A DNA stretch of 60,025 nucleotides, counting the filler, from Jimgerdemannia flammicorona (taxonomy: Eukaryota): assembly GCA_003990765.1 (NCBI GenBank). It is 2 parts of 2 records of this genome, joined end to end, with 100 filler letters (N's around TTAATTAATTAA, not from the genome) between each part and the next. Parts side by side here need not be neighbours in the genome. Positions count along the whole stretch, not along the records: positions 30,065 to 60,025 come from RBNJ01000461.1; 1 more part is not named here. One strand, given 5' to 3'. Numbering within the stretch: position 1 is the stretch's first letter; each line of letters opens with the position of its first letter. Under the pieces are notes generated by a model. The model saw nothing but the letters and a program-made list of their open reading frames with translations. It did no database searches and was not told where the DNA came from. The translations under genes and the position numbers were made by a program. Shown here piece by piece: positions 11,956-59,056 of the stretch.

Positions 11956-11956
<1 letters not shown>

Positions 11957-11959
11957 ATT

Positions 11960-14563: not shown

Positions 14564-14565
<2 letters not shown>

Positions 14566-17323: not shown

Positions 17324-17400
17324 CGGTCAATACTCTACAAATCGAGTAATGCAAGTCACGTCCACCCAGACTGATGACTTCCTCGTATACTCATACGAAG

Positions 17401-17697
17401 TTATTCTTCATTAGAGAATGTTTTCTGTAGTGGTAGCCAAAAATATGAACAAGGAATGGCACCGAGCATTCTCAATGAAAATGCCAGCTTATCATTCGAC
17501 CATAGAGAAAAGTTCAGCGTCGTCGCACTTGGCGAAAGCAGCCCAATAAGGTTCCTGCCCGTTCCAAAAACTCTGCTCATCTCAACCACGTGCGCCAAGA
17601 ATGTGACTACCGTAATAACAATAGCTCCGACAGTACGGGGGAGGCACGAAGCCAGCAATGATTGAACCTTTACTGGTAATGGCCCGTTGCCATGACA
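17401..17697 (-). pseudogene. Possible frameshifted remnant of an RTA1-like paralog N-terminus
   Basis: With one frameshift reads FVPPRTVGAIVITVVTFLAHVVEMSRVFGT, resembling the first TM of the adjacent gene; same strand. Confidence 0.3.
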
Positions 17698-32160: not shown

Positions 32161-32173
32161 ACCGCTGCTACCA
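32161..32173 (-). promoter_or_regulatory. Primer-binding site of family B (TGGTAGCAGCGGT), initiator-tRNA-Met-like
   Basis: 3 nt inside the LTR end; complementary to ...CGCUGCUACCA; also at ~58849-58859. Confidence 0.75.
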
Positions 32174-32176
32174 AGT

Positions 32177-36368: not shown

Positions 36369-37228
36369 TTCATATAAAGCAAGGACCTGATTCTGATCTT
36401 AATTAATTAGTTGATAGTTTAAACTCCTCTAGCTTCAAAAGTCTCATGGATGAGTAGTTGCTGGTGCTATATCCTTTAGAAAATGGTTCAGACAGATTAC
36501 CTACTGATTAGAGGTCAAGCTGTTATGATTCATAGACTAGAATCTCATGGATAGTCATTATATTTTGCTTCTCTTATATAGGTTCATAGTGCTTCTTGAG
36601 TCTGTTCCTGTATACTATAGTAGACAGTATAGTCTCTGAGAGTTTTCTAAGCCAGAAGGTAGTTCTCTTAATATCTTGTATATAGAAGAGTCCTTCTCAT
36701 TTGGGCTTCAGGTTTCACAACTATAAGGCTTCTATTATATTTCAATACAGTAGGACCTTTTCTCTAATTTGGATAGATTCTAGGGTTTTGTGTATTCTTT
36801 CTTATCAGTATTTGTAACTTGATGATATAATCTTTAGCTTTCTTTCTGATTTAGTATAGTTTCTAGATTTCTGAGTCAATCTATCTCTAAGTTAGGTCTA
36901 GATTTATAGCTGAGATATCATCAGAATCTTCTTCTCTGAAGAGTAGTTCTCTTAGGATAAAGTGTATACTCTATGACTATATATCTCATAGGACAGAGAG
37001 AGTAGTTGGGAGATAGTTATTCCAATTGTCATATGTGTCTGAGATCTTTACCCAGATGTTTTTGAGAGTTTTATTAATTCTCTCTGTCTGTTCATTTTCT
37101 TGAGAGTGATATATGGTGGTCTTGATATACTGAATCTTATATTTCTGATATATTATCTTGTAGAATCCATTGAAAAATTCTGTGCTATAGTCTGTAGTGA
37201 TTTGTCTTAGTGTCTTATAGTAGCAGAT
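36369..37228 (-). mobile_element. Family-A-like integrase/3' fragment, inverted; flanked by a poly(A) run (36349-36368) and a B LTR
   Basis: Reverse complement aligns with 44745-44889 plus 46323-47050 and has no LTR at the CAGAC site. Confidence 0.85.
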
Positions 37229-38184
37229 TATAAGAGGGTTACTTATTAGAGTAACTGTTACATAGTTCTGGAAGAGTTTTCTAGAAGTTCTGAATATTCT
37301 GAAAGATCATTTTCTTAAGATTAAGATCAATTTCATATAGAGTACATCTTCTATACTTATTGATTTCAAAATTAGATTAATGTCTCAACCAAAGTCCTTT
37401 TTCAGACTAGTTCTAGAGATTCAGGATTTTCCATATTTCAGGAAGTTTAAGAAACTAAGGTCAGCTTAGTTGAATTGGCATATTGCTGCAGACAATACCC
37501 AATTAGGAAATTTTATAATAGGGTTAGGAGTGAGATCTGACAGAGAGCAGATTTACTTAAAAGTGGTTTGTGGGTTATTAAATAGGTTTATTTGCTATTT
37601 ATGATATTGCTATACTAGGAGTAGTTGTATAAAGGGATATTGTGGAGAAGTGTTCAGAATTGTTCTTGTCTCTTTAAGTCTGAGATTCTGAGATCTAGGG
37701 AGGGAGTATTTATACTAGTGAGGGGCTATCTGGACTATGCTGAATATGGATGTAGCACTTAGTGCCTTGCTGAGTATGTTCAGGACATTCTATCAGATCT
37801 CTATAAAGTAGAGAGATGCTAGGCTATAGATATTCATGAGGGGTAGGAGAGGTATGGCTTGGTTGATAATGGTATTTCAAATGTCAGTACAAATATAGTT
37901 ATAGATCTCAGTGGTCATATTTATATATATATTCAAGAGTTGTAGTTGTTTGTTTAGTTTGTTGTGGTTCTTCATTTCAATATATAGAGTTTTCAATATA
38001 TATATTTTTGGTCCTAATTGGTAAGATTCTGTTTATATAGATCTTATATTCTGTGACTTCAAGTTGACTTAGCTTTGTAATCTATAACTTTAGTTTGACT
38101 TAGTTTCATGATCTTACATGTGATTTTCAGATTTATTCTAAGAGTGATATGTAATTTTAGTGGCTTGGAGATTATATACTTACA
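37229..38184 (-). repeat. Family B 3' LTR, internally deleted (956 bp), with adjacent PPT
   Basis: TATAAG...CTTACA ends; polypurine tract on the - strand at ~38185-38200. Confidence 0.88.
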
Positions 38185-38784
38185 ACTCTTCTCTTCTTAG
38201 CTTTTGATATCCTCATTGAGGTCTTCATTTTTGATCTAGTATTATTATACCATTTGGATGATCAAAAGTCTGATAATATCTTTTTTTCTCAGAAAGTAGC
38301 ATGCTTATAGTATAGTTATCTAATGTGTTGAATTTATATATTAAAGGGTCATATGTTCAATATCATATATCAGAAGTAATTCTGATATCATTTACTACTA
38401 GAGAATTTCCTTTAAGGAATCTTCTTAAATATCTATGTCTCATTTCTCACTAGTGGTATGGAAAGAATAGGCTGGCTTTCAGTTTTGCTATTTTTCTAAA
38501 GGATCATATTCTTTTATCTTGACTTACCAAGTTCTTGATTATTGTAACAGTGACTCCAGAATGATGACATCAGCACAGGAGACAGCCTTTCCTTACAAGC
38601 CACCAGATCAGAACACAAGAAGATCATATGGTATACAAGATGAGCAATGATGACCAACTGTGAGTCATTGTGACCACAGTATAAGCATCCTGAAGAATAT
38701 AAAAGAAGGATCAAGGAACTGCAGTAGCAGCAACCAACAAGAACCACCAATCCCAAATTAGCTCAAAGACTTACCATAAATAAA

Positions 38785-39600
38785 ATACCTACTGCCTGCT
38801 AAACCTCAAGGTCAAGAAACCACCAAAGTATCTCAGTTGAAGAAAGGATGTTCCAAGACATCAGAAGAGCCATGAGGACCTGCTCAAGAAGGACTCCTAG
38901 TGTCAACCTGGGTACTGCAGACCCCTATCACTTTATCCTCTACCACTATGAAATGGAAACAAGGATCACCATTGCTACTGAATGCCTCCAAATATAGCAG
39001 GAGTATGAAATAGGAAACCTCCTCTGCTAGGAGTTCCCACAGACCAGCCCTCAAGAGCTACAAGATGCCACTCTCATGGACATTTGTGAGACAAGAATGG
39101 TCAAGAAGATCCATCAGATCTTCAGGCATGCACTATGGTCAATCCCCAACTTGGAGTATATTAGAGTCTCAGACTTCAAAGACCTGTCATCCCACCATAT
39201 CAATGCACTAGAAGCCAGGGTGGCCACAGAAGCTCAGTCCACTATCACCCTCAACAATGATGAAGTAAAAGACTTCTGGCATCTCATCCTTCAGGATAAC
39301 CCACACCAATTCCTGCAAGGATTGATCGCAGTATTCCAAGGCCCAAGCATCTAGGTTAGACCTCCCCAAGACCCCACATTTGTCCCTTATTTTGTAGAAG
39401 AGAACCTCATAGACTGGAGAGCCCCAGACCTCCTCCCCACTGCCAAACATGATGATGTCATTGGCAATGATGTCATCCTATGCAACATCAAAGTACACAA
39501 AATGTGCAACCTACATAATGAATTCATGGATCTCATCTCCTTCAGTGATGATGATGATAATGATGATAAAGTCCCCATAGTCCTGAACTTTCTACTCTAA
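38785..39600 (+). pseudogene. ORF embedded in family A 5' LTR (start mutated to ATA)
   Basis: Colinear with 47452-48261; TATAAAA at ~38698. Confidence 0.8.
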
Positions 39601-42600
39601 GTTCTTTGTTATACTAAATAATGCCAGCACTGGTATTCTGATGTAACACTGGATAATATCAGCACTGATATTCTGAGGTGATGCAAAATTGTTCCAGCAC
39701 TGGTATTCTGATGTAATACTAAATTATACCAGCATCCTGAACCTGTACAACCATCAGTACCGACCCTGGAACTTAGTAGTTTTAGTTATTGAAATTTATA
39801 TTTAGCTTTATATCTTAGCAACCATTGAATTATATTTTGTATAAATACTCCTCTTATTTCCTCTGAAATAAAGTCAGTTCCAGTTTCACTTACACACACT
39901 TCCTTACAAGTAATCTAAGAGATAATAAGACAGTTAAAGATAAGAAGTTTGAGGACTATAAGATCTTGGGAAGGCACTCCAATAAGAACTTGCTTATAAC
40001 AAACTTGAGTTAGTCTAAGAGATATATCTTGAAGAAAATCTGGCATATTTGAAGGACTTAGCAACTACTATGTGACAACTTGGTGCCCATTGGCTGGTGA
40101 TTCAAGATAAATCCCTCACTTTCAAGCTGAAAAACAAACAACCCCCACAACAACTACCCTGACTACAAGAGTCGCTCCTGCAAGAATTCAAAACAAGATG
40201 GAAATGTGTTCTCCTACATTCTATGAATATACTACTGAAGAGTCAATCCTGACCTTCATTGAAGACTTTGAACAATTTGCCACCATACAAGCCCTTGGTG
40301 TGGATACTCAATTGGCCCTTCTACCAGTCAGCCTCAGAGGACCTGCCAGAGACAAGTTCAATGCAGCCACTATTACTAATACTAGTGCAGCCAAACTTGC
40401 CAACATGAAGACCTTTCTCAGAATAATATATTATACCAAAGAGATCAAGCAAGCTCTCAAGAATCAACTCAATACTATCTGTCAGAGACTTAGTGAAGAT
40501 CCCAACTCATTCTATACCCAAATCTGCCACTAGATTGTCTTGGTTGGCTATGATGACCACCTCAAGGAACAAATAGCAGATTTAACTTTCCTTAAAGAAG
40601 TTCACTCTGAAATTGCCCTAGCAATCTGGTCTACCCTAGCTGCACTGACTCTTGATCAGAAAGTGGTCTTTGCACAGAGATATTGGACTACCAGATACCC
40701 TGCCAAATACTCAATAGAGAAAATAACTGGAATCAAGATAGAGCCATCAAAGCCAACTAGTATCTTACCCGCCACAGTTGTAAACAGACAACCAACCCCA
40801 CTTACCCCCAAGACAGCCAAAGCTGAACCAGTGGAAGAACTCACCAAGCAGTTTGCTGAGATGACTGCACACCTTGGTGATGTTGTTAGAGAAGTCTGAA
40901 GTGCCAACAGGAGACCAGTGCAGAGATTTGCAGCTGCTACAGAAGAATACAATATTACATGCTTCAGATGTGGAGAAGAAGGCCACTATGTAAAGAATTG
41001 CTTGACCAAAACAAGACACAAAGCCCAACCAAGCAATGCTAGCAGAACTAGAGAAAAAATCAATGCAGTAGTCATCGAGGAGATTGGTGACACTGATGAT
41101 GAAGAATACTATGAGGAGCTTGAATTCTACCCTGCTACTGAAGGTACCAGAACCTGGTCCAAGCCCTATGACAAGAAGAGCAACAGCAAGCCAGTTAGAA
41201 GACCAAAGAAGACTCCAGCCATCACTATTCAAAGCAAGACCCAACCTGAGGAGATTGATCAAGACATAGAGTTAGATGAAGCTGCCTGCTAAATTATTGA
41301 AGACACTACTCCAGTCTCAGGAGAAAGTAAAAGCAAGAAGGAACAGAAGCTGCACAAAACCAAGATCCATCAGTATGATATCTACAAGGACCTCAAGGAA
41401 CAGAAGATCAATGCTACCTTTGGACAACTAGCTGAAGTCCCTGCCTTCAGATAGCAGTTGAGAGTAGGACTTGCAACTATTACTAAGAATCAAAAGTACA
41501 AGATTGTAGAAGCTCATAATGCAGGAAGAATCTGAGAACTCAGGTAAAGAATCCAAAGACTAGCGCAAGACATCAGCCTATACTCCATGTCAGATTGAAG
41601 ACTGTATCTTTGATTCCATCATTGATACTGGTACTGGAGGATACCTCATAAGCAAGAAGGCAATTGACTGCCTAGGCTGGGACATTGAAGAGTCTACCAA
41701 GATGGTCTATATCACAGCAGATGGTATACGAGCTACTCCTCTTAGCAAAATCTGAGAAGTCCCCATCAAGATAGGAGGAGCTATATACCATCCCAGTAGA
41801 CATAATTGTTATAAGCACCACCAACTATGACATCCTCATTAGCAACCAATGGCTTCATAAGGCCAAGGCCATCATTGACCTCAATGTCCAGAAGATGCAG
41901 ATCAACTACAGAGGAAGAAAGGTACAAGTTTCTATCAATGTTCATAAAGGAGTCCTATCAGACATGGAGAAAGGAGATGAAGAAGATACAGGTCTTCATG
42001 CACTTAGTGAATAAGAACAAGAACAAGACACCCAAGCTCACAGATGAGCAGTGGTACAACAAGATCATTGATGGCTATGCCCCTCAAGAAAGATGCCCCC
42101 ATAGTACTAGGATGTACTGCTCTGAACACCTGAATGACTGCTGGTCTTATATCAGTGAAATCAGGAAAATCCATCAATAGAAACATGAGCAAGAAGCTGC
42201 TGAAGCAAAAAGGAAAGCTGAAGAAGATGACCAGCCCCCAGAGCTCCAAGCTGACAGCAATGATGAGGAGGAACAAGAATCAGACATCACCCTCAAGGTC
42301 AAGAAGTTTCACCCTGAAGCCAAGATCCCAGAATATAAGACTGAAGGAGCCATAGGAATGGACCTTGCCAGCATTCAAGATGCTACCCTCAAACCACAGA
42401 CCACTACCCTACTTGGTACTGAAATTGGAGTCAAGCTGCCAGAGAACTATGCCAGAATTATCAAGACCAGGAGCAGTCTGGCCAAAAGCGAAATCTCAGT
42501 TAAAGGAGGAGTAATTGACCCTGATTACACTAGTGAGATCTTCCTCATAGTCAGAAATCACAACCACACCACCCCCTTCAAAGTCAAGAAGCATGACAGG

Positions 42601-44889
42601 ATTGGCCAGATGCTGATCCATGAAATCAAGAAGCCCAAGATCATTGAAGCCATCAAACTCATCAAGACCAAGAGAGAAGAACAAGGCTTTGGATCTACTG
42701 GAAGAGAAGTCTATGCTACCACCAAGATTACTAAACTCAAGCATAAGAAAGACAAGGACCAGAACAAGCATACATATACCATTGGAGAAAACTTTCTCCT
42801 GGAGGAAAAACTTCTCAAGATCCTGCACCAGAATGAAGGAGTACTTGCTATAGACTTTAAGAATATCCACAATCAAGAACCCAAGTACTATTATGAAGTT
42901 GACACTGGTGATACCAAGCCCATCTACCAGAAAGCCAGACCTATATCACCTGCCTACAGAGAGTGGCTGTGAGCAGAACTCAAGGAAATGGAAGAAGCTG
43001 GAATCATCAAGCAATCTATCAGCCCCTGGGCTTCACCCATTGTCCTTGCCCCGAAAAAAGGAAGCAAACCTGGAGAATTTGTGCCAAGACTCTGTATTGA
43101 CTACAGGAAGCTCAATACCATTACCAAGAAGGATAGGCAGCTCTTGCCGAATATTCAAGAGATCCTTACCACCCTTGAAAGTAAAGCCAAATACTACACC
43201 ACCTTGGATCTGTTCTCAGACTTCCATCAGATTGGTCTCACTCAAGATACCAGTGAGAAATCAGCCTTCATCACACCTAATGCCACCTATATCTACCTGT
43301 GAATGCCATTTGGAATGTGCAATGCCCCAGCAAGTTTCTAGCAAATGATGAACAGAGTCTTCAGCAATGAGATTGGAAAATGACTCTTTGTCTATGTTGA
43401 TGATGTGATCATCTTCAGCAACACTGCACAGAAATATGTCAACCACATACAGCTAGCCCTCAAGAAGCTCAAGGAGCATGGCCTCTACATCAAGCCCAAG
43501 AAATACAAGTTTGCAGCTCAGGAAATCGCCTACCTAGGACACCTCATCAACCAGACCGGAATCCATACAGACCCTATAAAGATTGAGGCTGTTGCAGCCT
43601 ATCTGAGACCCAGAACAACTACAGAAGTCCATGTCTTCCTTGGACTGGCCAGCTACTATAGAAGATTCATCAAAGAATCCTCCAATATTACAACACCTAT
43701 CTATGAGCTACTGAAGAAGGAAATCAAATTCGAATGGACCAAGGAGCACTAAGAAACTTTCAATGAACTCAAGACTAGGTTGACCCAAGCACCTATCCTC
43801 AGAAGACCAGACTGGAATCTAGAATTCATCCTGCAGACAGATGCAAGTGCTATAGGACTTGGAGCAGTCCTAGCTCAGAAGAAAGATATATATGAATATA
43901 TCATCTCTTATGTAAGCTGAGGTATCTGTAGAGCAGAACAGAACTACAAGTCATGCAAGCTCGAATGCTTAGCAGTAGTTTGGACAGTAGACAAGTTCCA
44001 CTACTACCTAGCTGAGAAACACTTCACCATTCAAACAGACCACTCTGCTCTCACCTGGCTATTCCACACTCTGAACTCTAAAGGAATATATGTCAGATAG
44101 ATCTACAGACTGCAAGAGTATGACTATACTATTAAGCACTGCTCAGGAAAGACCAATACTAATGCTGATGCACTCTCAAGGACACCCCAAAACACCCCCA
44201 TCAAGACTATTCAACATGAATAAGGAGCTATACTATGGATTAATCAGCTATCTTGGGCAGCGGAAGATGCCCAACCACCTCAAACCTTGGACTATCAATA
44301 TCATCAGCTGGACTTGGAAACAGTTTGAACTAGATAACACTATACTCAGAAAAGGAGGAAAGCTAGTAATATCCAAACACAAGAAGTATCAAATAATGAA
44401 GGAAGTACATGAGCAAGGACACTTAGGAGGAACCAACACATATGACAAAGCAAGAAGAACTATATGGTGGTCTAAGATGGAAGAAGACCTGTGCCAATTT
44501 GTCAAAGGGTATGACAAGTGCCAAAAACAGAAATAAGATCAGTAAGACCAAGTACCCAGATCATCAAGAATTGAGTCTATCCCCTTTCATCACATTGCAA
44601 TAGATATCATTAGACCACTACCAGTAATACTATCAAGAAATCACTATATTATAGTTATTATAGACCTCTTCACCAAATGGATAGAGGTAGGAGCATTACA
44701 AGAAGTCAATGCCCTCTCTATAGCTAACTTCCTGTACTGAGAAATCATCTGCTGCTACAAGACACCAAAGCAAATCACAACAGACTAAGGCACAGAATTT
44801 GTCAATGGATTCCATGAGATAATATATCAGAAATACAAGATCTAGCACATCAAGACCACTGCATACCACCCTCAAGGAAATGGACAGAC

Positions 44890-46317
44890 TGTAAGAGGGT
44901 TGCTTTTTAGGGTAACCGTTACATAGTTCTGGAAGGGTTTTCTGGAAGTTCTGGATATTCTGGAAGACTGTTTTCTTATGGTCAAGATCAATTTCATATG
45001 GAGTACATCCTCTACGCTTATTGATTTCAAGATTGGGTTGATGTCTCAACCAAAGTCCTTTTTTGGACTAGTTCTGAATGTTCAGGATTTTCCGTATTTC
45101 AGGAAGTTCAAGAAACTAAGACCAGCTTAGTTGAATTGGCATATCGCTACAGACAATACCCAATTTGGAAATTTCGTGATGGGGTTAGGAGTAGGACCTA
45201 ACAAGGAGCGGATTTACTTAAGAGTAGTTTGTGGATTATGGAATAGGTTTATTTGCTATTTATGATATTGCTATACTAGGAGTATTTGTGTGAAGGGGTA
45301 TTGTGGGGAAGTGCTCAGGAGTTGTGTTCGGATTGTTCGAGTCTGAGATTCTGAGGTCTGGGGGAGGGGGTATTTATACTAGTGAGGGGCTATCTGAACT
45401 AGGCTAGATATGGATGTAGCACTAAGTGCTTTGCTGAGTCGGAATGCAGTCACATAGTACAAGTGTGATCTGATATGTCAAGAGATCGTCTGACTGCTGA
45501 GTCAGTTCACAGTCACATCATATAAGGCTAATCTAACTATATTATGACTGCTAGACTATTTATAGGTTTAGGCACTATCTGGGTAGTTCTCGATGATATC
45601 ACCATCGATTGTATCATCTCTGATGAAGTAGTCGTCTAGGAATAATGGTTTGCGGATTACTTCTCCTTGTTGGCTGAGGTAATAATACATTGGAACTTCA
45701 TCTCCATCCCACAGGATAGTATCATCTGTTTCGTATGCTAGATAAGGTGTTGGTGGGCGAAGAGCTTCTGGTGTTGAGACATCTGGGTAATGTCTGTATC
45801 ATGGTGGTGTTCGACCATGTCTTCCAGGAGGCAGCCGATCTGGTAGTAGCTTGAGATTTGTCCGATTCGGTGGGCCTCACTAAGCATGTTCAGGGTGTTC
45901 CATCGGGCTTCCACGAAGTAGAGGGGTGCCAGGCTATGGATATTTATGAGGGGCAGAGGGGGTGTGGCTCAGTTGACAATGGCATTCCAAATGTCAGCGC
46001 GGATGCGGTTGTAGATCTCAGTGGTCATGTTTGTGTGTTTGGAAGTTGTGGTTGTTGTTTGTTTTGGTTCTCTGATTCGACACGTCTCGGTGCTCAGTAT
46101 ATATGCATTTGGTCCTGATTGGTAAGATTCCGTTTGTGTAGATCTTGTGTTCCGTGACTTTGTATTGACTCAGCTTTGTGTGCTGTGACTTCGGTTTGAC
46201 TCAGCTTCATGATCAAGCAGGTGATTTCCAGATTTGTTCGGAGGTCGCATGTGATTTCAGTGGCTTTGTTCAGAGGGTGACATGTAATTTCGGTGGCTTG
46301 GGGGTTGTGCGCTTACA
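44890..46317 (-). mobile_element. Family B solo LTR (1428 bp, ~634-bp internal deletion) inserted in family A integrase
   Basis: TGTAAG...CTTACA; 5-bp TSD CAGAC (44885-44889 / 46318-46322); integrase GNGQT|ERTNK is restored on removal. Confidence 0.97.
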
Positions 46318-47451
46318 CAGACAGAGAGAACCAACAAGACCCTCAAGAACATCCTAGCAAAGATCTCAGAGATATATGAGAATTGGGATAACTACCTCCC
46401 AACTGCCCTCTCTGTCCTATGAGATATACAGTCACAGAGCACACACTTTATTCCAAGAGAGCTACTCTTTGGAGAAGAAGATTCTGATAGAACATCAGCC
46501 ACAAATCTAGACCTAACTTAGAGATGGGTTGATGTAGAAATCCAGAGACTATACTAAATCAGGAAGAAGGCTGAAGATTACATCATCAAGTCATAAGTAC
46601 TGACAAGGAAGAATGCAGAAAAGAATCATAAGGCCCTAGAACCCATCCAAATCAGAGAAAAGGTTCTACTGTATCGAAATATGGTAGAAGCCTCATGGTC
46701 ATGAAAACTGGAGCCCAAATGGGAAGGACTCTTCTATATGCAAGATATCAAGGGAACTACCTTCTGGCTTAGAAAAATCTCAGGGACCATACTGCCTACC
46801 ACGGTATATAGGAACAGACTCAAGAAGTACTATGAACCTATATAAGAGAAGCAAAACATGATGACTGCCCATGAGGTTCTAGTCTGCAAATCATAACAGT
46901 ATATCCCGTGACCAGCAGGCTATCTGTCTGGACCATTCTCTAAGAGATACAGTACTGGTAACTACTTATCTATGAGACTTTTGAAGTTAGAGGAGTTCGA
47001 ACTATCAACTGATTGGTCAAGATCAGAATCAGGCCCTTGCTCTATATGAAGGGAGCAACCCTTCACCATTATGCCAAAATACAAAGGGAAGATGCCAGCC
47101 AATAAATACCACTTTTCGACCCCTTGCCAGAGGTTATAGGATCAGCAAATTTCTCAGGACTGGACCAATGAATAAGGATGCTTAGAAAGATCCTTATTTA
47201 GGAGGAAGATGTAATGGTGACTCCAGAATGATGACATTAGCACAGGAGACAGCCTTTCCTTACAAGCTACTAGATTGGAACACAAGAAGATTATATGGCA
47301 TATGAGATGAGCAATAATGACCAACCATAAGTCATTATGACTACAATACAAGCATCCTGAAGAATATAAAAGAAGGATCAAGAAACTGCAGTAGCAGCAA
47401 CCAACAAGAATCACCAATCCCAAATTAGCTCAAAGACTTACCACAAATGAA

Positions 47452-48261
47452 ATGCCTGCTGCCCACCAAACCTCAAGGTCAAGGAACCACCAAGGTATTT
47501 CAGTCAAAGAAAGAATGTTCCAAGACATCAGAAGAGCCATGAGGACCCACTCAAAAAGGACTCCTAGTGTCAACCTGAGTACTGCAGACCCCTATCACTT
47601 TATCCTCTACTACTGTGAAATGGAAACAAGGATCACCATTGCTATCGAATGCCTCTAAATATGGCAGGAGTACAAAATAGGAAACCTCCTCTGCCAGGAG
47701 TTTCTATAGGCCAGCCCTTAAGAGCTACAAGATGTCACTCCCATGAATATATATGAGACAAGAATGGCCAAGAAGATCTATCAGATCTTCAGGCATATAC
47801 CATGGTTGATCTCCAACTTGGAGTATATTAGAGTCTCAGACTTCAGAAATCTGTCATCCTGCTGTATCATTGTACTAGAAGCCAGGGTGGCTACAGAAGC
47901 TCAGTCCACAATCACCCTCAATAGTGATGAAGTAGAAGACTTCTGGCATCCCATCCTTCAGGATAATCCAGACCAATTCCTGCAAAGATTGATCTCAGTA
48001 TTCCAAGGCCCAAGCATCCAGGTTAGACCTCCCCAAGACCCCACATTTGTTCCTTATTTTGTAGAAGAGAACCTCATAGACTGGAGAGCCCTAGACCTCC
48101 TCTCCACCACTGAACATGATGACATCATTGGCAATGACATCATCCCATGCAATATCAAAGTATGTGAAATGTATGACCTATATGATGAATTTACAGATCT
48201 CATCTCCTTCAGTGATGATAATGATGATGAAGCCCCCATAGTCCTGAACTTTCTGCTCTAA
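47452..48261 (+). pseudogene. ORF embedded in family A 3' LTR (270 codons, 3 in-frame stops)
   Basis: ORFs 47452-47658 and 47743-48261 are in the same frame; the stops correspond to CAA/CAG in the other LTR; TATAAAA ~85 bp upstream. Confidence 0.85.
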
Positions 48262-48738
48262 GTTCTTTGTTACACTAAATAATGCCAGCACTGGTATTCT
48301 GATGTAACACTGGATAATACCAGCACTGGCATTCTGAGGTGACATGAAATTGTTCCAGCACCAGTATTCTGATGTGATACTAAATTATACCAGTATCCTG
48401 AACTTGAACAACCATCAGTGCTGACCCTGGAACTTAGTAGTTTTAGTTATTGAAATTTATATTTAGCTTTATATCTTAGCAACTATTGAATTATATTTTG
48501 TATAAATATCCCTCTTATTTCTTCTGAAATAAAGTCAGTTCTGGTTTCACTTACATATACTTCCTTGCAAGCAATCTAAGAGATAACAAGATAGTTAAAG
48601 ATAAGAAGTTTGAGGACTATAAGACCTTGGGAAGACACTCCAATAAGAACTTGCTTATAACAAACTTAAGTTAGTCTAAGAGATACACCTTGAAGAGAAT
48701 CTGGCATATTTGAAGGACTCAGTGACCACTATGTAACA

Positions 48739-50540
48739 TTATATATGATAATTATAAGAGTACTTTTAATAATATTTGGGAGGAGTAATATATGTATAGA
48801 ATAGGACCAATAAGTGTTAGAGTATTTAGATTTTAGTTGTTCAAAGAATCATATTCCTGAACTAAGTCAGTAGCATTCTGGAGATTGGTTTTGGGTTCTC
48901 ATATTACATTATGGATCAGATAACCTTTTCATTTGACAAGATATTCAGAGTAGTTCTTATGACTGCATTTGTTGAGGATTTGTTCAACTTTGTATTCTTC
49001 TTAGTTATTAATAATAACAGATGCAGGTGGTTTTATAGTTTAGTTCAGGAATAGTATATCATTATTTTCATTATATTACTTGCGATATTGAATATTGAAG
49101 ACTGGGTAAATCTTAATGATATCTGGTAGTACTAATTTGTAAGAAGTTGGAGAGACTTATATGATAACTTTAAATAGTTTAATGAATTTGCTATTTATGT
49201 AGCTTTGTAGAGGATCTGTACTTGAGGCTATCAACTTGACATCCTTTGATATCTAGTAGAATTTTTTCTCTGATGTCAAAAGTTTCTTCTTAGTAGTACT
49301 TATTGATATACTGTGATTGTTGTTCTTGAGCTTGAGATAAATTCTCAATTGTAATCTGGCTTAAGTTGTACTTTTGGAGCAGGAATTCTTCAATAGCTTC
49401 AATAGTAGAGAGTTCATCAGTGGCTCTAATAAGGATCAGAGGGGCGTTTGGGTTTTATTCTATATTGGCAAAGAATGGGGTCATTCTAAGAGAGGCTTAT
49501 TTGCTATTATTATAGGTAAACTTAACTGTAGTAAGGTGTTTATGCCAATTATCTTATCTATAGGAAATATAGTTTCTTAGCATTTGTTCTAGAGTTCAGT
49601 TCATTCTTTCAGTTTGACCATCAGTTTCAGAGTAAAAGACTATAAGTAGTGCAAGTTTCATTCCAAGATATGTATGTAGAGCTTTCTAAAAGTAGCTGGT
49701 AAATTTCAGATCTTAGTCACTAACAATAATCTTGAGAAAACCATAATAGTAGAAGATATTATCAAATAAGAGTGTAGTGATTTCAGATACTATTGTAGTT
49801 GTAACAGTAGATATGAAGTAGGCTTATTTGCTAAGATAGTCTATGAAGATAACAATTGTATCTTTCTCATTCTTGGTTCAGAGTAGTTGTACAATGAGAT
49901 CTATAGATATTTGTTCTTGATTAGCAGATACATAGTACTAGGATAGGATGAAGTAGGCCAGATTTTGCTAGTATTGAGAACTTATTACATTGGTAGGTAT
50001 TATAGAAGGTGATATTGGTCTTTAGCTAATCCATTATACAGAGCTAATAGAAGTTTCAGAAAATAACTTTATAGTATTTATCAAATCCTAAATGTCTAGG
50101 TATAGGAACATCATAACATTCAAATAGGATAGTCCTTTAGAGGTCTCAATTGTTAGGAATATACAATCTGTCCTTATAGTAGATAGTATTGTCCTTCAGT
50201 TGATATTGATGATACTGAGAGTACTCAAGATTTCTCAGAGTACTTAAGCTTTTTTTTATCAGTATATATTATAATAATTTATTCTATAATAGAGTTGGTA
50301 ACCAAGATGAGAGTTTATATAACTTCTTCAATTAGTGGTCTAGAAATTGTATCAATAATAATATTCTCCTTATCAGGAAGATACTGGATTTTATAGTCAA
50401 AATTAGTGAGGACTTTTATCCATCTGACTTACTTTTGAGAAAGGGTAGCCTGAGTCTTGATATTAACTAATGATTTATAATCTGTCAATATAGTAAAGTA
50501 TACTCCTTTAAGATATAATCACTATTTGATCAGGGTGTCT
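48739..50540 (-). mobile_element. Family B pol 3' region: RNase H end, integrase and chromodomain (host of the family A insertion; continues at 38185-38542)
   Basis: FTILTDYKSL..RWIKVL; ETDGQTERMN; EEYKVEQILNK..EYLVK*KGY..*EPKTNLQNATDLVQEY chromodomain. Confidence 0.88.
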
Positions 50541-50566: not shown

Positions 50567-51458
50567 GATTGTAAGTTTATCAGCAAGGTTGGCAGGATGA
50601 TCAGAGTTGGTAGGGATCCTTGGCTTGAGGTCATATCAGTATCAGAGGAATCATTGCCTTCTGCTTTATTATTATCAAACAAGATTATATTATAGACATC
50701 CTTCATGGTATATCCAACTTGGAGCATTTGCAGAATATAGTTATTGAGATGTGGGAAGGTTCTATCTGTAGTTTGAATATACTTGAGATACTTGTGGTTG
50801 AGTTCTTGTATCATATTATCAATTTGGCCATATAATAATATAGCAACTATCTTAGCAGTAGTAACTCAAAGGCAGGGAATAAAGGAGCTATACTTATAGA
50901 AGAGTTCTTAGTGTTTACAGGTAATGAGTTTCTAGTGCTAGGATATCTGAGTAATGTCAGTATCATAATAGTATTTGATTATATCCTCCAGGAGGCAGCC
51001 AATCTGATAGTAGCTTGAGATTTGTCCAATTCAGTTGGTCTTACTAAGTATGTTCAGAGTATTCCATCAGACTTCCATAAAGTAGAGGGGTGCCAGGCTA
51101 TAGATATTCATAAGAGGCAGAGAGAGTATGGCTCAGTTAACAATGGCATTCCAAATATCAGTGTAGATATAATTGTAGATCTCAGTGGTCATATTTGTAT
51201 ATATATTTAAGAGTTGTGGTTATTTGTTTTGTTTGTTGTAGTTCTCTATTTTGACATATCTGATACTTGGTATATATGCATTCAGTCCTGATTGGTAAGA
51301 TTCCATTTGTATAAATCTTGTGTTCTGTAACTTCAAGTTGACTCTGCTTTGTACACTGTGACTTTTGTTTGACTTAGCTTTGTGATCTTGTATGTGATTT
51401 CCAGATTCATTTAGGGAGTGATATGTGATTTCAGTGGCTTAGAGGTTGTGTGCTTATA
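50567..51458 (-). repeat. Partial family B1 LTR (5' portion with N-terminal half of the LTR ORF)
   Basis: Aligns with ~33325-34238; ends CTTATA. Confidence 0.85.
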
Positions 51459-53971
51459 GATGTTTACTGGACACTCCTCTGTTTCTGAGCACCCCATACT
51501 TTCCCTGCCTCTTCTCAAAAACACTGAGCCTCAGACTTCAGTCTATACTACTAGTCTCTAATACTCAGACCTGCCTCCTTCTATGTTACAATCTGGAACT
51601 AAATCCTTCTCACTCAGGAATTCCACAGATTAGCTTTATCTAACAGAGAGGAGTTCAGATACCAATGTTCAGGCCCCTTCTACTTTCTCCAAACCTCTCT
51701 CTTCCCTGGATACCCTAATGATCTGACCAGGGGCACTATTCTATCTTCACTCTCTTCCAGACCATCTCCCCCCAACACTCAGCAGTCAAAACCCAATCAA
51801 TTATAGAGCCCAGCCCTCCTGTCCAATATGTGTATATCTGATATTCACTACCTTGTAGTCTCACAGTATCCATCAGAACACCAAGCCTCTCAATCTCCTC
51901 TCAGTTCTCCATCCCTCTACTTCTCTCTGATATCCTCCTTCTGCTATCTGTCCTGTCCAGTCTGCAATTCTAGACTATATTAAAGCAGTCCACCCCAGCC
52001 CCCACCAGAGCACCAGAGTTCTACAATACCTATATCTATTCCACTCTGATCCCTCTCTCTGCCAGACAGTAATAAAAAACTACAACTATATTACCCCAGT
52101 CTGGCCTCTACCACAACCTCTACACCAATCTGCTCTCTTAATATCCAATGTCTCCAATGTCCCCCTTCCCCCTTCTGATCAATATTCCCACCTTTTTCTA
52201 CCATATAACTGCCCCTCCCTCACCTTCTCATCCATTCCAATCTATTAACCTCAACCTCATACTATATATTCTGAAGTAGATACATATATATCTGCATCTA
52301 GTTTTCTCAGCCAGTCAAAGATATTATAATATCTCTCTGTTCTGCAAAGCCCATTCACATTTATAGAGAATATGTTGGTTATACTGTTCATATTGAATAA
52401 TGTTATAGAGGTATAGACTCACTCTATAATTTCATACTCACATTCTCTCCTACCATATCTAAGTTCTACTCAGCCTTGACCTCAGCCTCTAATTCCTGCT
52501 GTTCATCCAGAGCCACCAACAACTCTATATAATTCTCTCCATCTATTATTTCTATAAATACATTGTACTCCTCATACACTACCTACCATTTTGCCAGCCC
52601 ATTTCTTGGCCCCCACAGATATACTGCCTGATTATTTACAATATCCAAAAAAGTTGCCTCTTGGGTCACATCTATCTCATACTCTTTCTCTTTTAACAGT
52701 ACTATCATCATCTCATTCCTCAGCTTCCTCACCACTCTCTCACCCTATAGTACTTCTCCCCAGAAGGCCTCACTGATCACTTGAAAGTCTACCTCACCCA
52801 ACTTCTCTACCACTACATTCATCATTGTCTTCTACAGCTACTTCTCACCACCAACTGCCTCCTCTCTCTGCTAACTCCTGCTCTCTAGCTCCCTTGCCCT
52901 CCCCCTTCTCAGTCCTCTCAGATTTGTCTCATCTATTCTCTGATATATCCTACAGCTCCTCCTCTCTAATGCCAGATACTCCATACTAAATTGAAGCATC
53001 CTCTACCATCTCTATATCTGCTGAACTTCTGACCCTTAGTACTCTCCTGGTCTTCTCCTTGCTTCCCTATCCTAGCCCATATGTTAGCCCTCACACCCTC
53101 TTTACTAGCCACCTTGGCTTCCTTCTGGACTCCTCTCAGGCTCATCAATAACTCCTTCTGTACCTTCCTCCCCTGTGCCTTCTCCCAGAGAGCCCAGTCC
53201 ATCTGTATCTTCTTGCTATTGATGATCTCAACTACTGTCCTAGCCTCATACTTCTTCCAAGCCATCTACCTCTTCTTGACTGCTCCTACTGTATCCTCTA
53301 GTACCTCTAGCAGGTCCTTCTCCTCCTCTAGCATTTCTATCATTCTCAATACCTTATATTCCACCAGTCTCCACCTCAGCACTACCAGCTAGTCTCTCTC
53401 TTTCTCAGTATTCTCCTTCTCTATTAGCCTTACCCTAATATCCACATCTCTAGTTCTGAGCTCTGTCTCCTCCCAGACTCGAAATCTAACATCTACAAAC
53501 TCCTTGACTATATCCTCTATCAATTGCCTAGCTCTCTCCATTTTGACAGTTAGCACATTGGCCATCACCAGCTATACCACCTAGGGATCCCAGCACATAC
53601 ACCTCATCATTGGAACCACTACTCCTCTGATCTCTAGCCCTATCTCCAAAGCCCCCAATAATAGCTCCTCTTTCTCAAAGCCTATCTCTACTGACTTGAG
53701 CTTTTTCAAAAACTTCACTGAGGTTACACCTTTTATTTTCTTTGCCAAGAGCCCCAGTACCATCTTTGCTGTCACTATCAGACCCCAGAAGTATATTGTG
53801 ACTGTGAATTTGAATTTCAACTTCTTGAGTAACAGTACTGCTATCAGCTCTGTCACATCTTCAGCAAGATTACTAGGTCTTATACTCTTTCCATAACTCA
53901 GTCTACTATCAGCAGTCTTATTTAGATTTTTTTCCAGATTGCTCATTACACTCTCTTCAGCAGTTACTTCT
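51459..53971 (-). mobile_element. L1/Tx1-like LINE remnant (ORF1 plus AP-endonuclease of ORF2)
   Basis: MNSITNIFSINVNGL..IFDWLRKLDADI at ~52385; VPWSDH; GPEHWYLNSSLL; basic ORF1-like region 53946-52500. Confidence 0.78.
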
Positions 53972-56900
53972 TGTAAGAGGGTTGCTTTTTAGGGTAATCA
54001 TTACATAGTTCTGGAAGAGTTTTCTGGAAGTTCGGGATGTTCTGGAAGATCTTTTTCTTATGGTCAAGATCAATTTCATATGAAGTACATCTTCTATGCT
54101 TATTGATTTCAAGATTAGGTTAATGTCTCAACCAAAGTCCTTTTTCGGACTAGTTCTGGATGTTCAGGATTTTCTGTATTTTAGGAAGTTCAAGAAACTA
54201 AGACCAGCTTAGTTGAATTGGTGTATCACTGCAGACAATACCCAATTAGGAAATTTCATGAGAGGGTTAGGAGTGGGACCTAACAGAGAGTGGATTTACT
54301 TAAGAGTGAGTTGTGGGTTATTAAATAGGTTTATTTGCTATTCATGATATTGCTATACTAGGAGTAGTTGTGTGAAGGAATATTGTGGGGAAGTGCTCAG
54401 GAATTGTGTTCAGATTGTTCAGGTCTGAGATTCTGAGGTCTGGGGGAGGAGGTATTTATACTAGTGAGAGGCTATCTGGACTATGCTAAATATAGATGTA
54501 ACACTTAGTGCCTTGCTGAGTTGGAATGCAGTCATATAGTACAAGAGTGATCTGACATATCAAGAGATCATCTGACTGCTGAGTCAGTTCACAGTCATAT
54601 CATACAAGACTAATCTAACTATACTATGACTGCTAAGCTATTTATAGGTTTAGACACTATCTGGGTAGTCTTCAATGACATCACTATTGATGACATCATC
54701 TCTAGCAAAGTCTGAGCAGTTTTCTGACTTCTGACATCATCAGTTTCAAGATGTTGTCACTTCTATCTCTTGTAAGATTAAGGCTGTCCTTAGTGGCAGT
54801 GGTTGCACAAGGATAACAGGTCTTGGTTTTCTTTTTTTTTTGGTCTGCTGGTATATTTATAAGGACTGGCCATTCTTGTCTAGAGTGAGGGCTCCCAATG
54901 TTGCAGCTGGGGGTTTGAACCTCTTGGAAATGATATTTTCTGTAATCCAAGACAATTTCTAGTAGTAATATCTGTCATATGGATAGCTTGAGATTGGTTT
55001 TGATGATGTTGGCTTTCTTGAGTTCAGATGAAGCATCCATCACTCTCCAACAGAGGTGATACAAATAGAGCAAACGAAGTTGTTCAAATGTATTTTACTT
55101 CTGCTAAGTAATGAGGTCTTGTATAGTCACAGTGTATCTTGGTCTTGAGTTGATAAGTGCAGTTCATGAACCTTTTGATAGATGAGATAGGGTTCTTCTT
55201 ATCTCAATTTGAGTTTGGTACTTTTGGTTTCCTTTTGTAATAATACAGTATACCAAACTAGTTATAGTGGTTTGGAGTCAGTCTTGTGGTTATAGTACTT
55301 CTTCTAGTATTCTTGTATCTTGGCAGTAGGTTCTCGTGCTTGCTGGCGTATTTAATGTAACCAGATGATCTCTTCAGTAACTTATTTTGTAGTCTCATAT
55401 GTGGTTTCTAAATTAGTTCTGAGGATGCTATGCAATTTTGGTGGCTTGGAGGTTGTGTGCTTACAACTCTCTCCTTCTTAGCTTTTGACATCCTCATCAG
55501 GGCCTACTAATTTGTTCTGGTGTTGTTGTACCATTTGGATGGTTCTTGTGGTTGTATTTGTTGAGGATTTGTTCAAATTTGTATTCTTCTTGGTCATTAA
55601 TAATAACAGATACAGGTGGTTCTGTGGTTCGATTCAGAAATGTGTCTTGGGCTTTCTGGAGTAGTGGTCTGACATGGCTGTCAACTTTGGAAAAGTCTTC
55701 TTCAGAGTTCTCAGGTTCTCCTTTGGATAGATAGATGGAGATAGCAAAGAGAGGGCATTTCTTGACCAATTTCTTAAGTTGTAGCTTGTTGATGTAAGTG
55801 ATCTTTGGTCCAGGGTCACTAGAATTGAGTGGGTCCTTTTTGCCTTATAGTTTGAAGTTATGGCATCCTTTCTTGATGGTCAGAGAATTGTTTACCCAAT
55901 CAATCATAGAGTTCTCTTGTTTCAACCATAGGGTTCCAAGGATGATTTCATTATCAGGAAGTGGTACAATCTGGAGGGTAATATGTACTTCGTAGTCTCC
56001 AATTCGGAAGGGTAGGTTGTGGACTTCTCTGCTAATATGTAACATGTGAGGTTCCATCAGCTGTGGCAACTGCTTGAGTTTGTTGTACTGGAGAGGTGAA
56101 GACCTTAAGTCTATTGACTGTTTCTTCATTAATAAAGTTGCCTGAGGCACCACTGTCTATTATAATCTTAACAGGTGCTCAGTTGATAAAAGCTTTAAGT
56201 GTAAGTAGTTTGTCTGATCCAATAGTGGTGATTTCAGTTATAGGAGCTTTCCTTCTATTGGTTCTTCTTTATGCCAGTTCATTGACACAAGAGAAGCAAT
56301 TATCAATTATTCGGGAAGAGTACATTCCAATGCCATGAGGGCATTGGCCACTTGGTATATATCCATCTTTGATCTTCTTGTAGAATTGTTCTTTTTTGCT
56401 CATAGTAGATTGGGCTGAGGTCTTGTTCGATGAGCCAAATCCTTTGGATCCTTGGATGGTAGGTAGTAGTTCAGGGACTTCCTTGACTATCAGGGTTGAC
56501 TCAATTTTTTCAAATAGGATCTGGGCAATGTAGAAACCTATAGGGATCTTGAAGGGTGTCCAACTATGGTTTCGGATGAGGACAATAATTTCACCTGTGT
56601 AATCCTTGTCAATGACTCCTCCTTCTACTAAGAGTTCCTTCAATGCTAGGCTGCTGTAACAGCATATTCTTTCAACATGTCCCTCAGGAATTTGGATACT
56701 GATTCCTGTATAGACTTGCTTGACTTCTCAGTTGGAAACTGTAGCTTCTTCAGCTGCATACAGGTCATATCTGGCTGCTTTTTGACTTTCTTTGATTGGG
56801 GCCTTGGCAGTTTGCCTTAACTTGACAAAGTCTAGTGTTCTGGTGGTCAGATTGTTGAGTGGTGCAGAGTGGTAACAGTTGCTCATGTTGCTGTTTGGGG

Positions 56901-58978: not shown

Positions 58979-59056
<78 letters not shown>

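Follow-up and report, generated by a model that had tools for sequence, protein, structure and literature searches.

Long terminal repeats (LTRs) of retroelements are usually treated as non-coding control regions and are masked by the annotation pipelines for transposable elements (TEs), and solo LTRs are usually counted as inert scars or, at most, as promoters. Genes that reach into this region are known from retroviruses. The nef gene of HIV and SIV overlaps U3, and the foamy-virus tas/bel genes also overlap U3, have a separate internal promoter and encode a product that transactivates the LTR; the tas product has a size similar to that of the protein described here and an acidic C-terminal part. 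MMTV sag, which encodes a type II membrane glycoprotein, and HIV nef are expressed mainly from the 3' end through spliced or subgenomic RNA. In the portions of the literature that were accessible, accounts of open reading frames (ORFs) resident in LTRs mainly concern MMTV sag. The accessible text of PMC2864245 describes an env-like ORF in Athila and an 'add. ORF' in Ty3/gypsy-type elements, as well as PosPlaTy3-5 of Postia placenta, a dUTPase-bearing Ty3/gypsy element of a basidiomycete, and that of PMC5408684 describes captured ORFs in elements of bdelloid rotifers.

We analysed a window of 60,025 nucleotides, that is the whole stretch of DNA studied, from Jimgerdemannia flammicorona (GCA_003990765.1), in which positions 30,065-60,025 are derived from RBNJ01000461.1. 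Our main reading, to which we attach a probability of roughly two in three, is that the 1.5-kb LTR of a Ty3/gypsy element in this window carries a protein-coding accessory gene of the element family, to which proposals on its expression and role are attached.

The family-A element and the reading frame in its LTRs

The element, here assigned to family A, extends over 38543-48738 and is composed as follows:

38539..38542 (.), left copy of the target-site duplication TTAT, the right copy being 48739-48742; these bases directly flank the two LTRs
38543..40077 (+), 5' LTR (LTR5), 1535 bp, TG..CA, with 90% identity to 47210-48738
40081..40098 (+), candidate primer-binding site (PBS) starting with TGG, 3 nt past LTR5, read straight from the sequence
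40111..41292 (+), gag with a CCHC zinc knuckle (zf-CCHC, E 5.8e-05) and two internal stops
41294..44889 (+), pol, broken by stops, with protease, dUTPase, reverse transcriptase (RT), RNase H and the N-terminal and core parts of integrase
44890..46317 (+), nested solo LTR of a second family (family B), 1428 bp, TG..CA, with a 5-bp duplication CAGAC
46323..47199 (+), remainder of the integrase frame and 3' untranslated internal region
47200..47209 (+), polypurine tract (PPT) AGGAGGAAGA, directly before LTR3 and absent before LTR5
47210..48738 (+), 3' LTR (LTR3), 1529 bp, TG..CA, directly followed by TTAT

Both its structure, with the TG..CA pair of LTRs, the TTAT duplication, the PBS candidate and the PPT, and the order of its domains are those of a Ty3/gypsy element. 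Along 40111-44889, the Pfam matches follow each other as zf-CCHC, Asp_protease_2 (a weak match with an E of 0.0015, below the cut-off), dUTPase (2e-25), RVT_1 (5.6e-29), RT_RNaseH_2 (4.9e-30), Integrase_H2C2 (1.8e-14) and rve (1.5e-07, just below the curated cut-off). The nested 1428-bp solo LTR is separate from the family-A element. Indeed, the contigs of three sequencing runs (X1, X8 and X2) join ~44886 to ~46323 without it, and the integrase reading ..HPQGNGQT / ERTNKTL.. continues across the excised sequence. Upon examination for a reading frame, none was found in this nested LTR, and the window contains no solo LTR of family A. Aligned over 1529 columns, the two LTRs of the element show 90% identity and a single in-frame indel of 6 bp, and their differences comprise 147 transitions versus 6 transversions.

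An earlier reading of the window, made from the sequence alone, had proposed that both ~1.53-kb LTRs hold the same frame of about 270 codons. This frame was found at the proposed positions:

38785..39600 (+), LTR gene, 5' copy, 271 codons, ATA replacing ATG, internal stops at 38800, 38995, 39028 and 39352
47452..48261 (+), LTR gene, 3' copy, 269 codons, ATG kept, internal stops at 47656, 47707 and 47719

The frame is in sense orientation, begins 242 bp inside the 5' end of the LTR and ends 477 bp from its 3' end, thus lying wholly within the LTR boundaries in both LTRs, and neither copy contains a frameshift. It holds 3-4 internal stops, as opposed to 9-25 in the remaining five frames over the same stretch. 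In 5000 mononucleotide shuffles the mean numbers of stops were 13.6 and 14.3, with probabilities of 0.0018 and 0.0002 for at most the observed numbers. Across all six frames of 29001-60025, the gag and pol frames included, only 3.0% of the 270-codon windows have four stops or fewer, the median being 16.

The sequence-only reading had attributed the disruptions mainly to C>T stops, several of them sense codons in the other copy. This holds for all seven internal stops: at each of these sites the sibling LTR has a sense codon, from which the stop differs by a single C>T or G>A change. The same seven positions are sense in two related DNA copies from metagenome contigs (L001 and L002) and in every intact homologue that reaches the respective column (5-7 per column, among seven). 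Since every stop is private to one LTR and is a single transition away from the sense codon of the sibling, the frame was open at insertion. The LTR frame is therefore a complete gene that was intact when the element inserted, and the claim that a complete gene resides inside the LTR is borne out. The differences between LTR5 and LTR3 are spread evenly over the three codon positions (0.14/0.10/0.10), which points to neutral decay of the copies in the window. Both copies are dead, inactivated by the C>T/G>A hypermutation to which the repeats of this genome are subject.

To what extent the gene belongs to the family, as opposed to being a fragment private to this one copy, can be seen from four sequencing runs (X1, X4, X8 and X2), the contigs of which are recorded as DNA or as being of unknown kind. 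The depth of the ORF bins was at least that of the internal-region bins in all four runs, and the LTR gene is thus no private fragment of the window copy. At position 38996 nearly all of the depth in these runs is G, converting TAG to TGG, with G depths of 576.7/684.3 in X1, 63.3/63.3 in X4, 17.1/22.1 in X8 and 87.9/93.2 in X2. Apart from the two LTR copies, a tblastn search detected nothing in the window that encodes the LTR protein.

Homologues, selection and the predicted product

Intact homologues of 247-342 amino acids with 27-78% identity are encoded on short metagenome contigs, and the 5' LTR frame matched one of them (P0003) with an E of 2e-123 in tblastn. The homologue search returned 6 matches with E-values of 5.8e-118 to 2.1e-36. 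Among 1.84 billion representatives, 6 matches had E-values of at most 0.001, 4 of them of at most 1e-30, and a profile search returned 11 matches. The full-length homologues start with MPA or MPP and have an uninterrupted frame. All matches come from jgi/ena contigs of at most 4.8 kb, the longest of which (4848 bp) carries P0020, and none comes from NCBI or UniProt sources. No fused forms were found in a 'longer' search (600-2000 aa), which is weak evidence. One long sequence of 1861 aa, P0021, aligned in 8 short stretches with an E of 1.7e-05 and probably represents a low-complexity match. When metagenomes were scanned for DNA copies, 2 were confirmed among the 85 pattern matches listed, while none of 65 pattern matches in viral_contigs and none of 12 in genome_contigs was confirmed. 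Four DNA copies could thus be compared, namely LTR5, LTR3, L001 and L002. It should be noted that L001 and L002 are contigs of 1.3-1.5 kb without visible LTR ends, and that LTR residence is known from the window copies.

The ratio dN/dS of the window copies was 0.18-0.23 against L001 and 0.20-0.25 against L002, values that are only approximate because dS is saturated, and that rest on three independent lineages. The ratio is thus not near 1, the value that would have spoken against a functional frame. Between lineages, the differences at codon positions 1/2/3 were 0.35/0.24/0.49 and 0.51/0.36/0.60, in both cases with position 3 exceeding position 1 and position 1 exceeding position 2. In shifted frames the same alignments contained 13-23 stops and showed lower identity, and indels were in-frame and fell within a variable acidic tail. 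By these alignments, the LTR gene is a member of a diverged protein family under purifying selection. So far this family has come to light only in the form of unnamed "hypothetical" proteins on short metagenome contigs.

The LTR proteins are acidic (pI 4.5-4.9), and a mass of ~30 kDa may be estimated, rather than computed, from their 247-342 residues. Their charge is unevenly distributed: the first 50 residues carry a net charge of +3 to +7 in five of six members (0 in P0020), and the last 70 residues one of -8 to -17 in the six members. A conserved C-terminal motif reads P-x-(V/I/T)-L-N-F. No hydrophobic segment was detected, the 19-residue hydropathy window staying at or below 1.07 in 6 of 6 members. 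An AlphaFold model of the core is mostly helical (pLDDT 67, pTM 0.58), and the full-length model of P0004 is poor (pLDDT 49). These features predict a soluble, acidic LTR protein in which a basic helix at the N-terminus is followed by a helical core and a disordered acidic tail.

Database searches did not relate this protein to any described family. The two window proteins matched no Pfam family at E-values of up to 0.1, and 13 homologues yielded at E-values of up to 1 only two weak, unrelated matches, ATG5_HBR (2 members, best E 0.088) and GAE_BBS1 (1 member, E 0.23). Searching PDB sequences with the profile gave 0 matches at E-values of up to 10, and the ESM Atlas gave nothing usable (best feature score 0.83, TM at most 0.33). 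With the core model, which is of medium confidence (pLDDT 67), Foldseek retrieved 0 matches at E-values of up to 0.001 from both PDB (best 0.22, talin rod) and BFVD (best 0.13), and in a wide VIA-align search 0 of 48161 chains reached a Z of 5 (best 4.7). Similarity of the LTR protein to the Gag of the element itself was considered and rejected (probability 0.3%).

The product may tentatively be regarded as a nuclear trans-acting regulator of the synthesis or the fate of element RNA, although we consider this assignment doubtful. Because neither Pfam, PDB sequences, Foldseek nor VIA-align provided a match, it draws only on the charge distribution of the protein and on the position of its gene.

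Signals around the frame and rival explanations

Three groups of signals surround the gene in the LTR:

38698..38705 (+), upstream TATAAAAG box preceding the LTR gene, at 87 bp from its start codon; second copy at 47365-47372
39608..39734 (+), three tandem repeats of 35 bp that follow the ORF stop and precede the downstream TATA; in LTR3 at ~48269-48395 by offset
39840..39872 (+), TATAAATA followed by AATAAA at 39867, 27 nt later; second copy at 48501-48533 with AATAAA at 48528

The sequence-only reading had placed a TATAAAA about 85 bp upstream of the frame, and a second TATA with an AATAAA downstream of it. The former is present at 38698 and 47365, and the latter pair was likewise recovered, with TATAAATA starting at 39840 and 48501. 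The TATAAAAG box is unchanged in all four DNA copies, at distances to the ATG of 87 bp in LTR5 and LTR3, 65 bp in L001 and 80 bp in L002. ATGCCTGC is likewise invariant in the four copies, and the surrounding non-coding DNA barely aligns. The proteins of the lineages that keep TATAAAAG 65-87 bp before the ATG are only 38-55% identical. The downstream pair is common to the window and L001, where the spacing is 26 nt; it was not found in L002, the contig of which ends 284 bp past the stop. This pair may represent the promoter and poly(A) signal typical of an LTR, or it may be a fungal poly(A) signal of the bipartite type. At the 35-bp repeats, joints in other copies skip 31-35 and 94 bases, and the copy number of these candidate enhancer or response elements therefore varies. 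In L002, a PPT-like AGGAGGGAGGA and TTGTAAT directly follow the stop codon. If AGGAGGGAGGA acts as a PPT, the ORF might be internal in the L002 lineage; the sequence after AGGAGGGAGGA/TTGTAAT has no match to the 5' part of L002, and past its own stop the window LTR carries a homologous TTGTTAT in the equivalent position. The motif is not counted as evidence here.

Because the gene lies between the 5' end of the LTR and the TATAAATA/AATAAA pair, it is most probably located in U3. We consider it somewhat better than an even chance that the gene would be transcribed from its own TATAAAAG box, 65-87 bp before the ATG, into an RNA of ~1.15 kb that would end at the poly(A) signal of the LTR and could be made from either LTR of the element as well as from a solo LTR, without dependence on gag-pol. 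The idea of the LTR as a self-contained transcription unit, also put forward in the sequence-only reading, is plausible on this arrangement of signals, and its corollary that solo LTRs would keep the gene is logically correct.

The same signals could be used differently if the ORF were part of a very long R region instead of U3. The upstream TATAAAAG would then be the sole promoter, and TATAAATA plus AATAAA the two-part polyadenylation signal. The genomic RNA would begin with the LTR gene as its first cistron and carry it again at the 3' end; use of the poly(A) signal in the 5' LTR would yield short mRNAs, and read-through past this signal would yield genomic RNA. The upstream TATA is indeed the best conserved non-coding motif (4 of 4 copies), and since yeast 3' ends are specified by an efficiency element of the UAUAUA type and, after it, a positioning element rich in A, the spacing of 26 or 27 nt between TATAAATA and AATAAA would fit such a signal. 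However, this arrangement needs an R of ~1.16 kb and a strong-stop DNA of ~1.35 kb, and we know of no R region of comparable length. Moreover, with a full poly(A) signal in the 5' LTR at a distance of 1.1 kb from the cap, most genomic transcripts would terminate prematurely, gag would lie ~1.4 kb from the cap behind an ORF of 270 codons, and the three 35-bp repeats ~105 bp upstream of TATAAATA resemble a promoter-proximal enhancer. We therefore regard a long R as unlikely. Less probable still is that TATAAAAG is no promoter at all and that expression of the gene is confined to the 3' end of element RNA, through a spliced or subgenomic RNA under the main LTR promoter. Being sense-oriented, the gene would indeed fall in the 3' U3 of every full-length transcript, but TATAAAAG has kept its place before the ATG in lineages with strongly diverged proteins, and splicing would require an intron of ~7-8 kb, which is unusual for fungi, where introns typically measure tens to hundreds of bases.

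The remaining explanations deny the frame a function in the element, or its translation altogether. That it is a passenger, either a captured host gene or the relic of another element, with no role in retrotransposon biology, would suit a protein that has neither a recognisable TE-related domain nor similarity to the Gag of the element, and the capture of extra ORFs by retroelements is described in the accessible text of PMC5408684. We nevertheless judge this very improbable: the homologues, without exception, lie on the short jgi/ena contigs described above, none being from NCBI or UniProt; fused forms did not turn up, for what this weak evidence is worth; the window encodes the protein nowhere else; and purifying selection persists across lineages that share the layout of promoter and poly(A) signals, implying selection while the gene was riding in the element. 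Finally, we attach hardly any credence to the view that the frame is untranslated, having stayed open by chance or as conserved cis-regulatory DNA, as this conflicts with the shortage of stops relative to the other five frames, the excess of divergence at third codon positions between lineages, the in-frame indels in the variable acidic tail and the presence, on independent contigs, of uninterrupted frames 247-342 codons long.

Returning to transcription from the gene's own promoter, we can combine it with the proposed regulatory role, so that the LTR would harbour the gene of a trans-acting regulator in the form of an autonomous mini-gene, which would have a promoter of its own and use the terminator of the LTR. 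This combination, with a Tas-like or an anti-silencing function, is a speculative one that we hold to be rather unlikely as a whole. The protein might act via the 35-bp repeats between the stop codon and the downstream promoter, boosting the promoter of the family in a circuit like that of foamy-virus Tas, or else it might counter the repeat-silencing and hypermutation machinery of the host. The sequence-only reading had likewise suggested an anti-silencing or host-modulating factor. If this were true, every LTR, including the solo LTRs left after element loss, would be a potential protein source, the protein dose would report the cumulative copy number of the family, and this would be the first description, from outside the retroviruses, of an accessory gene that resides in an LTR.

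Comparison with accessory genes of other retroelements

The LTR gene represents a third gene of the element, one that survives LTR-LTR recombination and the expression of which could be uncoupled from that of gag-pol. That such a gene is not a standard feature of fungal Ty3/gypsy elements, as had been suggested, is in line with exact-phrase searches of open-access text, which returned no description of an LTR-resident gene in an LTR retrotransposon, Repbase notes and subscription journals being outside their scope. The present findings suggest looking for coding frames in the long LTRs of other genomes before these are masked.

Judged by domain order, the carrier resembles PosPlaTy3-5, which likewise has a dUTPase between protease and RT and resides in a fungal host, but for that element and its relatives the accessible text of PMC2864245 reports no gene within the LTRs. 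Like the additional ORFs of Athila and bdelloid elements, as far as these are covered in the accessible text of PMC2864245 and PMC5408684, the LTR gene is a conserved extra ORF beyond gag and pol with an unknown or accessory function. Those ORFs, however, are situated internally, either separating the LTR from gag or following pol ahead of the 3' LTR, and are lost on formation of a solo LTR, whereas here the gene is inside the repeat.

With foamy-virus tas/bel and with nef of HIV and SIV, the LTR gene shares its place as an accessory gene at the 3' end or in the U3 of an LTR retroelement. As in the case of tas, there is a second promoter, here a candidate one, and the repeats upstream of the main promoter could be response elements. 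Yet tas and nef only overlap the LTR, while the present gene is wholly inside it, and the likeness is one of layout only: no sequence or fold relation to these proteins, or to transactivators and export factors such as Tax or the Rev-like ones, was detected in PDB sequences or, with the core model of medium confidence, by Foldseek against PDB and BFVD and by VIA-align.

The LTR gene differs from MMTV sag in having no sequence or fold similarity to it and no Pfam match, in encoding a protein that lacks a hydrophobic segment in all six members, unlike the membrane protein Sag, and in its fungal host, its non-infectious Ty3/gypsy carrier and the conserved TATA directly upstream of the ORF. Nevertheless, both are complete sense ORFs contained in the LTR (~300 codons in sag), followed by the poly(A) signal of the LTR and, in the LTR gene most probably, also by the LTR promoter, and an ORF of the sag type within the LTR is for this reason present in both LTRs of every provirus. 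The gene described here provides a concrete and testable case of an accessory function resembling those of complex retroviruses in a fungal Ty3/gypsy element. It is an LTR-resident accessory gene, an arrangement that is otherwise known mainly from the superantigen gene of MMTV.

The family-A element and its surroundings

Self-comparison of the window and pairwise alignment revealed two direct repeats, LTR5 and LTR3, which share 90% identity across 1529 aligned columns and differ by only one indel, of 6 bp. Both start with TG and end with CA, and TTAT is present on both outer flanks of the pair. A TGG-initiated candidate primer-binding site is located 3 nt past LTR5, and the polypurine run AGGAGGAAGA adjoins LTR3 and is not present before LTR5. 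According to Pfam, the internal region encodes, in this order, a gag with a CCHC knuckle, an aspartic protease (weak match), dUTPase, RT, RNase H and integrase. The repeat pair and its contents are a Ty3/gypsy element of 10.2 kb. Passages of PMC2864245 describe some basidiomycete Ty3/gypsy elements with a dUTPase between PR and RT, and in this position the family-A element resembles them.

Features of the family-A element and of the window around it
16146-16967 (minus strand), weak RTA1-like membrane protein, host gene
19852-22233, Zn(2)-Cys(6) cluster protein, host gene (E 3.7e-08)
23331-23927, N-terminus of a lipin homologue, host gene (lipin N-terminal domain, E 8.6e-22)
38543-40077, LTR5
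42181-42700, dUTPase domain within pol, between protease and RT (Pfam E 2e-25)
44890-46317, solo LTR of a second family, 1428 bp, TG..CA ends, 5-bp CAGAC duplication, interrupting the family-A integrase frame
47210-48738, LTR3

Contigs from three public runs join ~44886 to ~46323 without the nested solo LTR, and across this join the integrase reading ..HPQGNGQT/ERTNKTL.. is restored. The solo LTR contains no long frame, its longest open stretch being 87 codons. Just upstream of LTR5, an inverted fragment at 36369-37091 shows 82.7% identity to 46317-47050 in the family-A 3' internal region; it is what remains of a further family-A copy. Second-family pieces with 78-90% mutual identity surround the family-A element (30067-34239, 37224-38182, 50569-51456, 53971-55033 and 56753-60015). 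From 29 kb onwards, the window is a nest of decayed retroelements. The Zn(2)-Cys(6) and lipin genes, which lie where the window is rich in G+C, and the weak RTA1-like gene identify the host as a fungus. Between gene-rich stretches there is a very A+T-rich block (9000-13000, G+C 0.24-0.32), inside which a unit of ~200 bp is tandemly repeated at 9661-10070.

Decay and conservation of the LTR gene

The sequence-only reading had proposed a complete extra gene inside the family-A LTRs. Indeed, the same frame of ~270 codons, here termed the LTR gene, is present at 38785-39600 in LTR5 and at 47452-48261 in LTR3. The LTR5 copy has ATA at the start-codon position and four internal stops, the LTR3 copy has kept its ATG and has three, and neither contains a frameshift. 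Across this stretch, each of the other five frames contains 9-25 stops, and composition-matched shuffles (5000 each) have means of 13.6-14.3 stops, with probabilities of 0.0018 and 0.0002 for as few stops as observed or fewer. The earlier description of C>T-type stops that are sense codons in the other copy applies to all of them: 7/7 occur in a single LTR, and one C>T or G>A change separates each from the sense codon of the sibling. The two LTRs of one element are copies of one template at insertion. Since no stop is shared and both LTRs stem from this template, the frame was open at integration, over 271 codons.

LTR5 and LTR3 are distinguished by 147 transitions versus 6 transversions. Between them there are 23 adjacent TG/CA doublets, which are ancestral CpG sites where LTR5 and LTR3 underwent deamination on opposite strands, and CpA>TpA-type changes are also numerous. 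The observed/expected ratio of CpG is 0.02-0.03 in the family-A LTRs, compared to 1.07-1.08 where the window is gene-rich (1-8000 and 14000-29000). The genome defence appears to target CpG as well as CpA contexts, and the decay of the LTR frame is consistent with the repeat-directed hypermutation evident throughout the family-A element. Both window copies of the LTR gene are dead.

Intact relatives were found elsewhere when two very large protein collections were searched with an X-read translation of the window frame. The word-indexed search returned six matches (E 5.8e-118 to 2.1e-36), HMMER, run exhaustively against 1.84 billion representatives, returned six with E≤0.001 (four of them at ≤1e-30), and a 13-member profile returned 11. 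The proteins matched by the window frame are uninterrupted. Full-length members comprise 247-342 aa, begin with MPA or MPP, and share 27-78% identity with the window copy or with P0004, one of the homologous proteins. All homologues trace to jgi or ena; their contigs are 0.6-4.8 kb long, and their annotation is "hypothetical protein" at most. At the DNA level, two of 85 pattern matches were confirmed, namely the short metagenome contigs L001 and L002, with intact ORFs of 323 and 291 codons, respectively; LTR ends were visible in neither contig.

The dN/dS values, proposed earlier as a check, are 0.18-0.25 for the window copies against L001 and L002 (Nei-Gojobori); it should be noted that they are approximate, since dS is saturated, and that the DNA compared represents three independent lineages. 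A more robust measure is the difference per codon position: 0.35/0.24/0.49 for window versus L001 and 0.51/0.36/0.60 for window versus L002, compared to an even 0.14/0.10/0.10 for LTR5 versus LTR3. Therefore, purifying selection has acted between lineages, and the window copy has drifted neutrally since insertion. Shifted frames of the same nucleotide alignments contain 13-23 stops and show much lower identity. The possibility that the segment is a fragment private to this one copy was examined in two soil metagenomes and two runs of one organism (A), using contigs at ≥80% likeness whose molecule type was given as DNA or as unknown. It is not private, as ORF depth was at least as high as internal-region depth in all four runs. 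Among the 40 of 2261 variant rows listed is position 38996, where nearly all depth is G, turning the window TAG into TGG, as in all homologues.

Putative transcription signals in the LTR

As noted from the sequence earlier, a TATAAAAG box precedes the start codon, at a distance of 87 bp in LTR5 and LTR3, 65 bp in L001 and 80 bp in L002. The box and ATGCCTGC at the start are invariant in all four DNA copies (LTR5, LTR3, L001 and L002), and the non-coding DNA around them is hardly alignable among the four. The downstream TATA and AATAAA described before are likewise present, as TATAAATA at 39840 and AATAAA at 39867, 27 nt later. L001 shares this pair, 26 nt apart, and the L002 contig ends too soon after its ORF to reveal it. 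Tandem repeats separate the gene from the pair:

39608-39734 (and about 48269-48395), three 35-bp tandem repeats, beginning directly 3' of the LTR-gene stop and ending ~105 bp before the downstream TATA

Their number varies among family copies, joints in the public runs skipping 31-35 and 94 bases. Downstream of the L002 ORF (1420-1470 of that contig), an unrelated 16-nt motif is repeated with the same 35-bp spacing.

The simplest reading is that the LTR gene would lie in U3 and have its own promoter, the upstream TATA, and that the downstream pair would represent the canonical LTR promoter and poly(A) signal, with a short R. RNA from the upstream TATA would meet a complete LTR poly(A) signal and end there, yielding a transcript of ~1.15 kb that could arise from a 5' LTR, a 3' LTR or a solo LTR. 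The main rival takes the upstream TATA as the sole promoter, placing the LTR gene in an exceptionally long R, and regards the downstream TATA-like motif as one component of a fungal poly(A) signal that consists of two. We rate this lower, because such an arrangement would cripple genomic-RNA synthesis. A U3 gene with its own promoter is the reading we favour, and the predicted self-contained transcription unit is well motivated by conservation.

The LTR protein and known systems

The members of the family are acidic (pI 4.5-4.9), with a net charge of +3 to +7 over the first 50 residues in 5/6 members (0 in the homologue P0020) and of -8 to -17 over the last 70. In the best AlphaFold model, that of the L002 core (227 residues, 19-sequence alignment; pLDDT 67, pTM 0.58), residues 21-37 form a confidently predicted basic helix and residues 50-152 a helical core (pLDDT 70-94). 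The motif conserved most strongly, (V/I)PY(F/M)..x.I.WR, is covered by a small beta element. The tail varies in length by whole codons, is D/E-rich with hydrophobic punctuation (DLISF), and has a conserved P-x-(V/I/T)-L-N-F motif at or near its end. No recognisable family or fold was detected with Pfam, PDB sequences, Foldseek (PDB, BFVD), VIA-align (48161 chains) or the ESM Atlas, and the members contain no membrane-spanning hydrophobic segment. The LTR protein is therefore neither Sag-like nor envelope-like. It also bears no likeness to the element's own Gag. The layout of basic helix, helical core and acidic tail, together with the position of the gene by repeats upstream of the main promoter, leads us to a tentative guess, preferred over others and still more apt to be wrong than right, that the product may be a nuclear trans-acting regulator of the element, which could work either as a transactivator, like foamy-virus Tas, or in the handling of RNA.

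Additional ORFs of Ty3/gypsy elements are located in the internal region as described in PMC5408684 and PMC2864245. Phrase searches of open-access full text turned up no paper describing an LTR retrotransposon with a gene within its LTR, the matches for LTR-encoded proteins being papers on MMTV sag. We class the LTR gene as an accessory gene that resides in the LTR of a fungal retrotransposon and encodes an orphan protein family. The layouts of nef and of foamy-virus tas, the latter served by a second promoter dedicated to it, are analogous to that of the LTR gene, and the closest known arrangement is that of sag in the U3 of the MMTV LTR.
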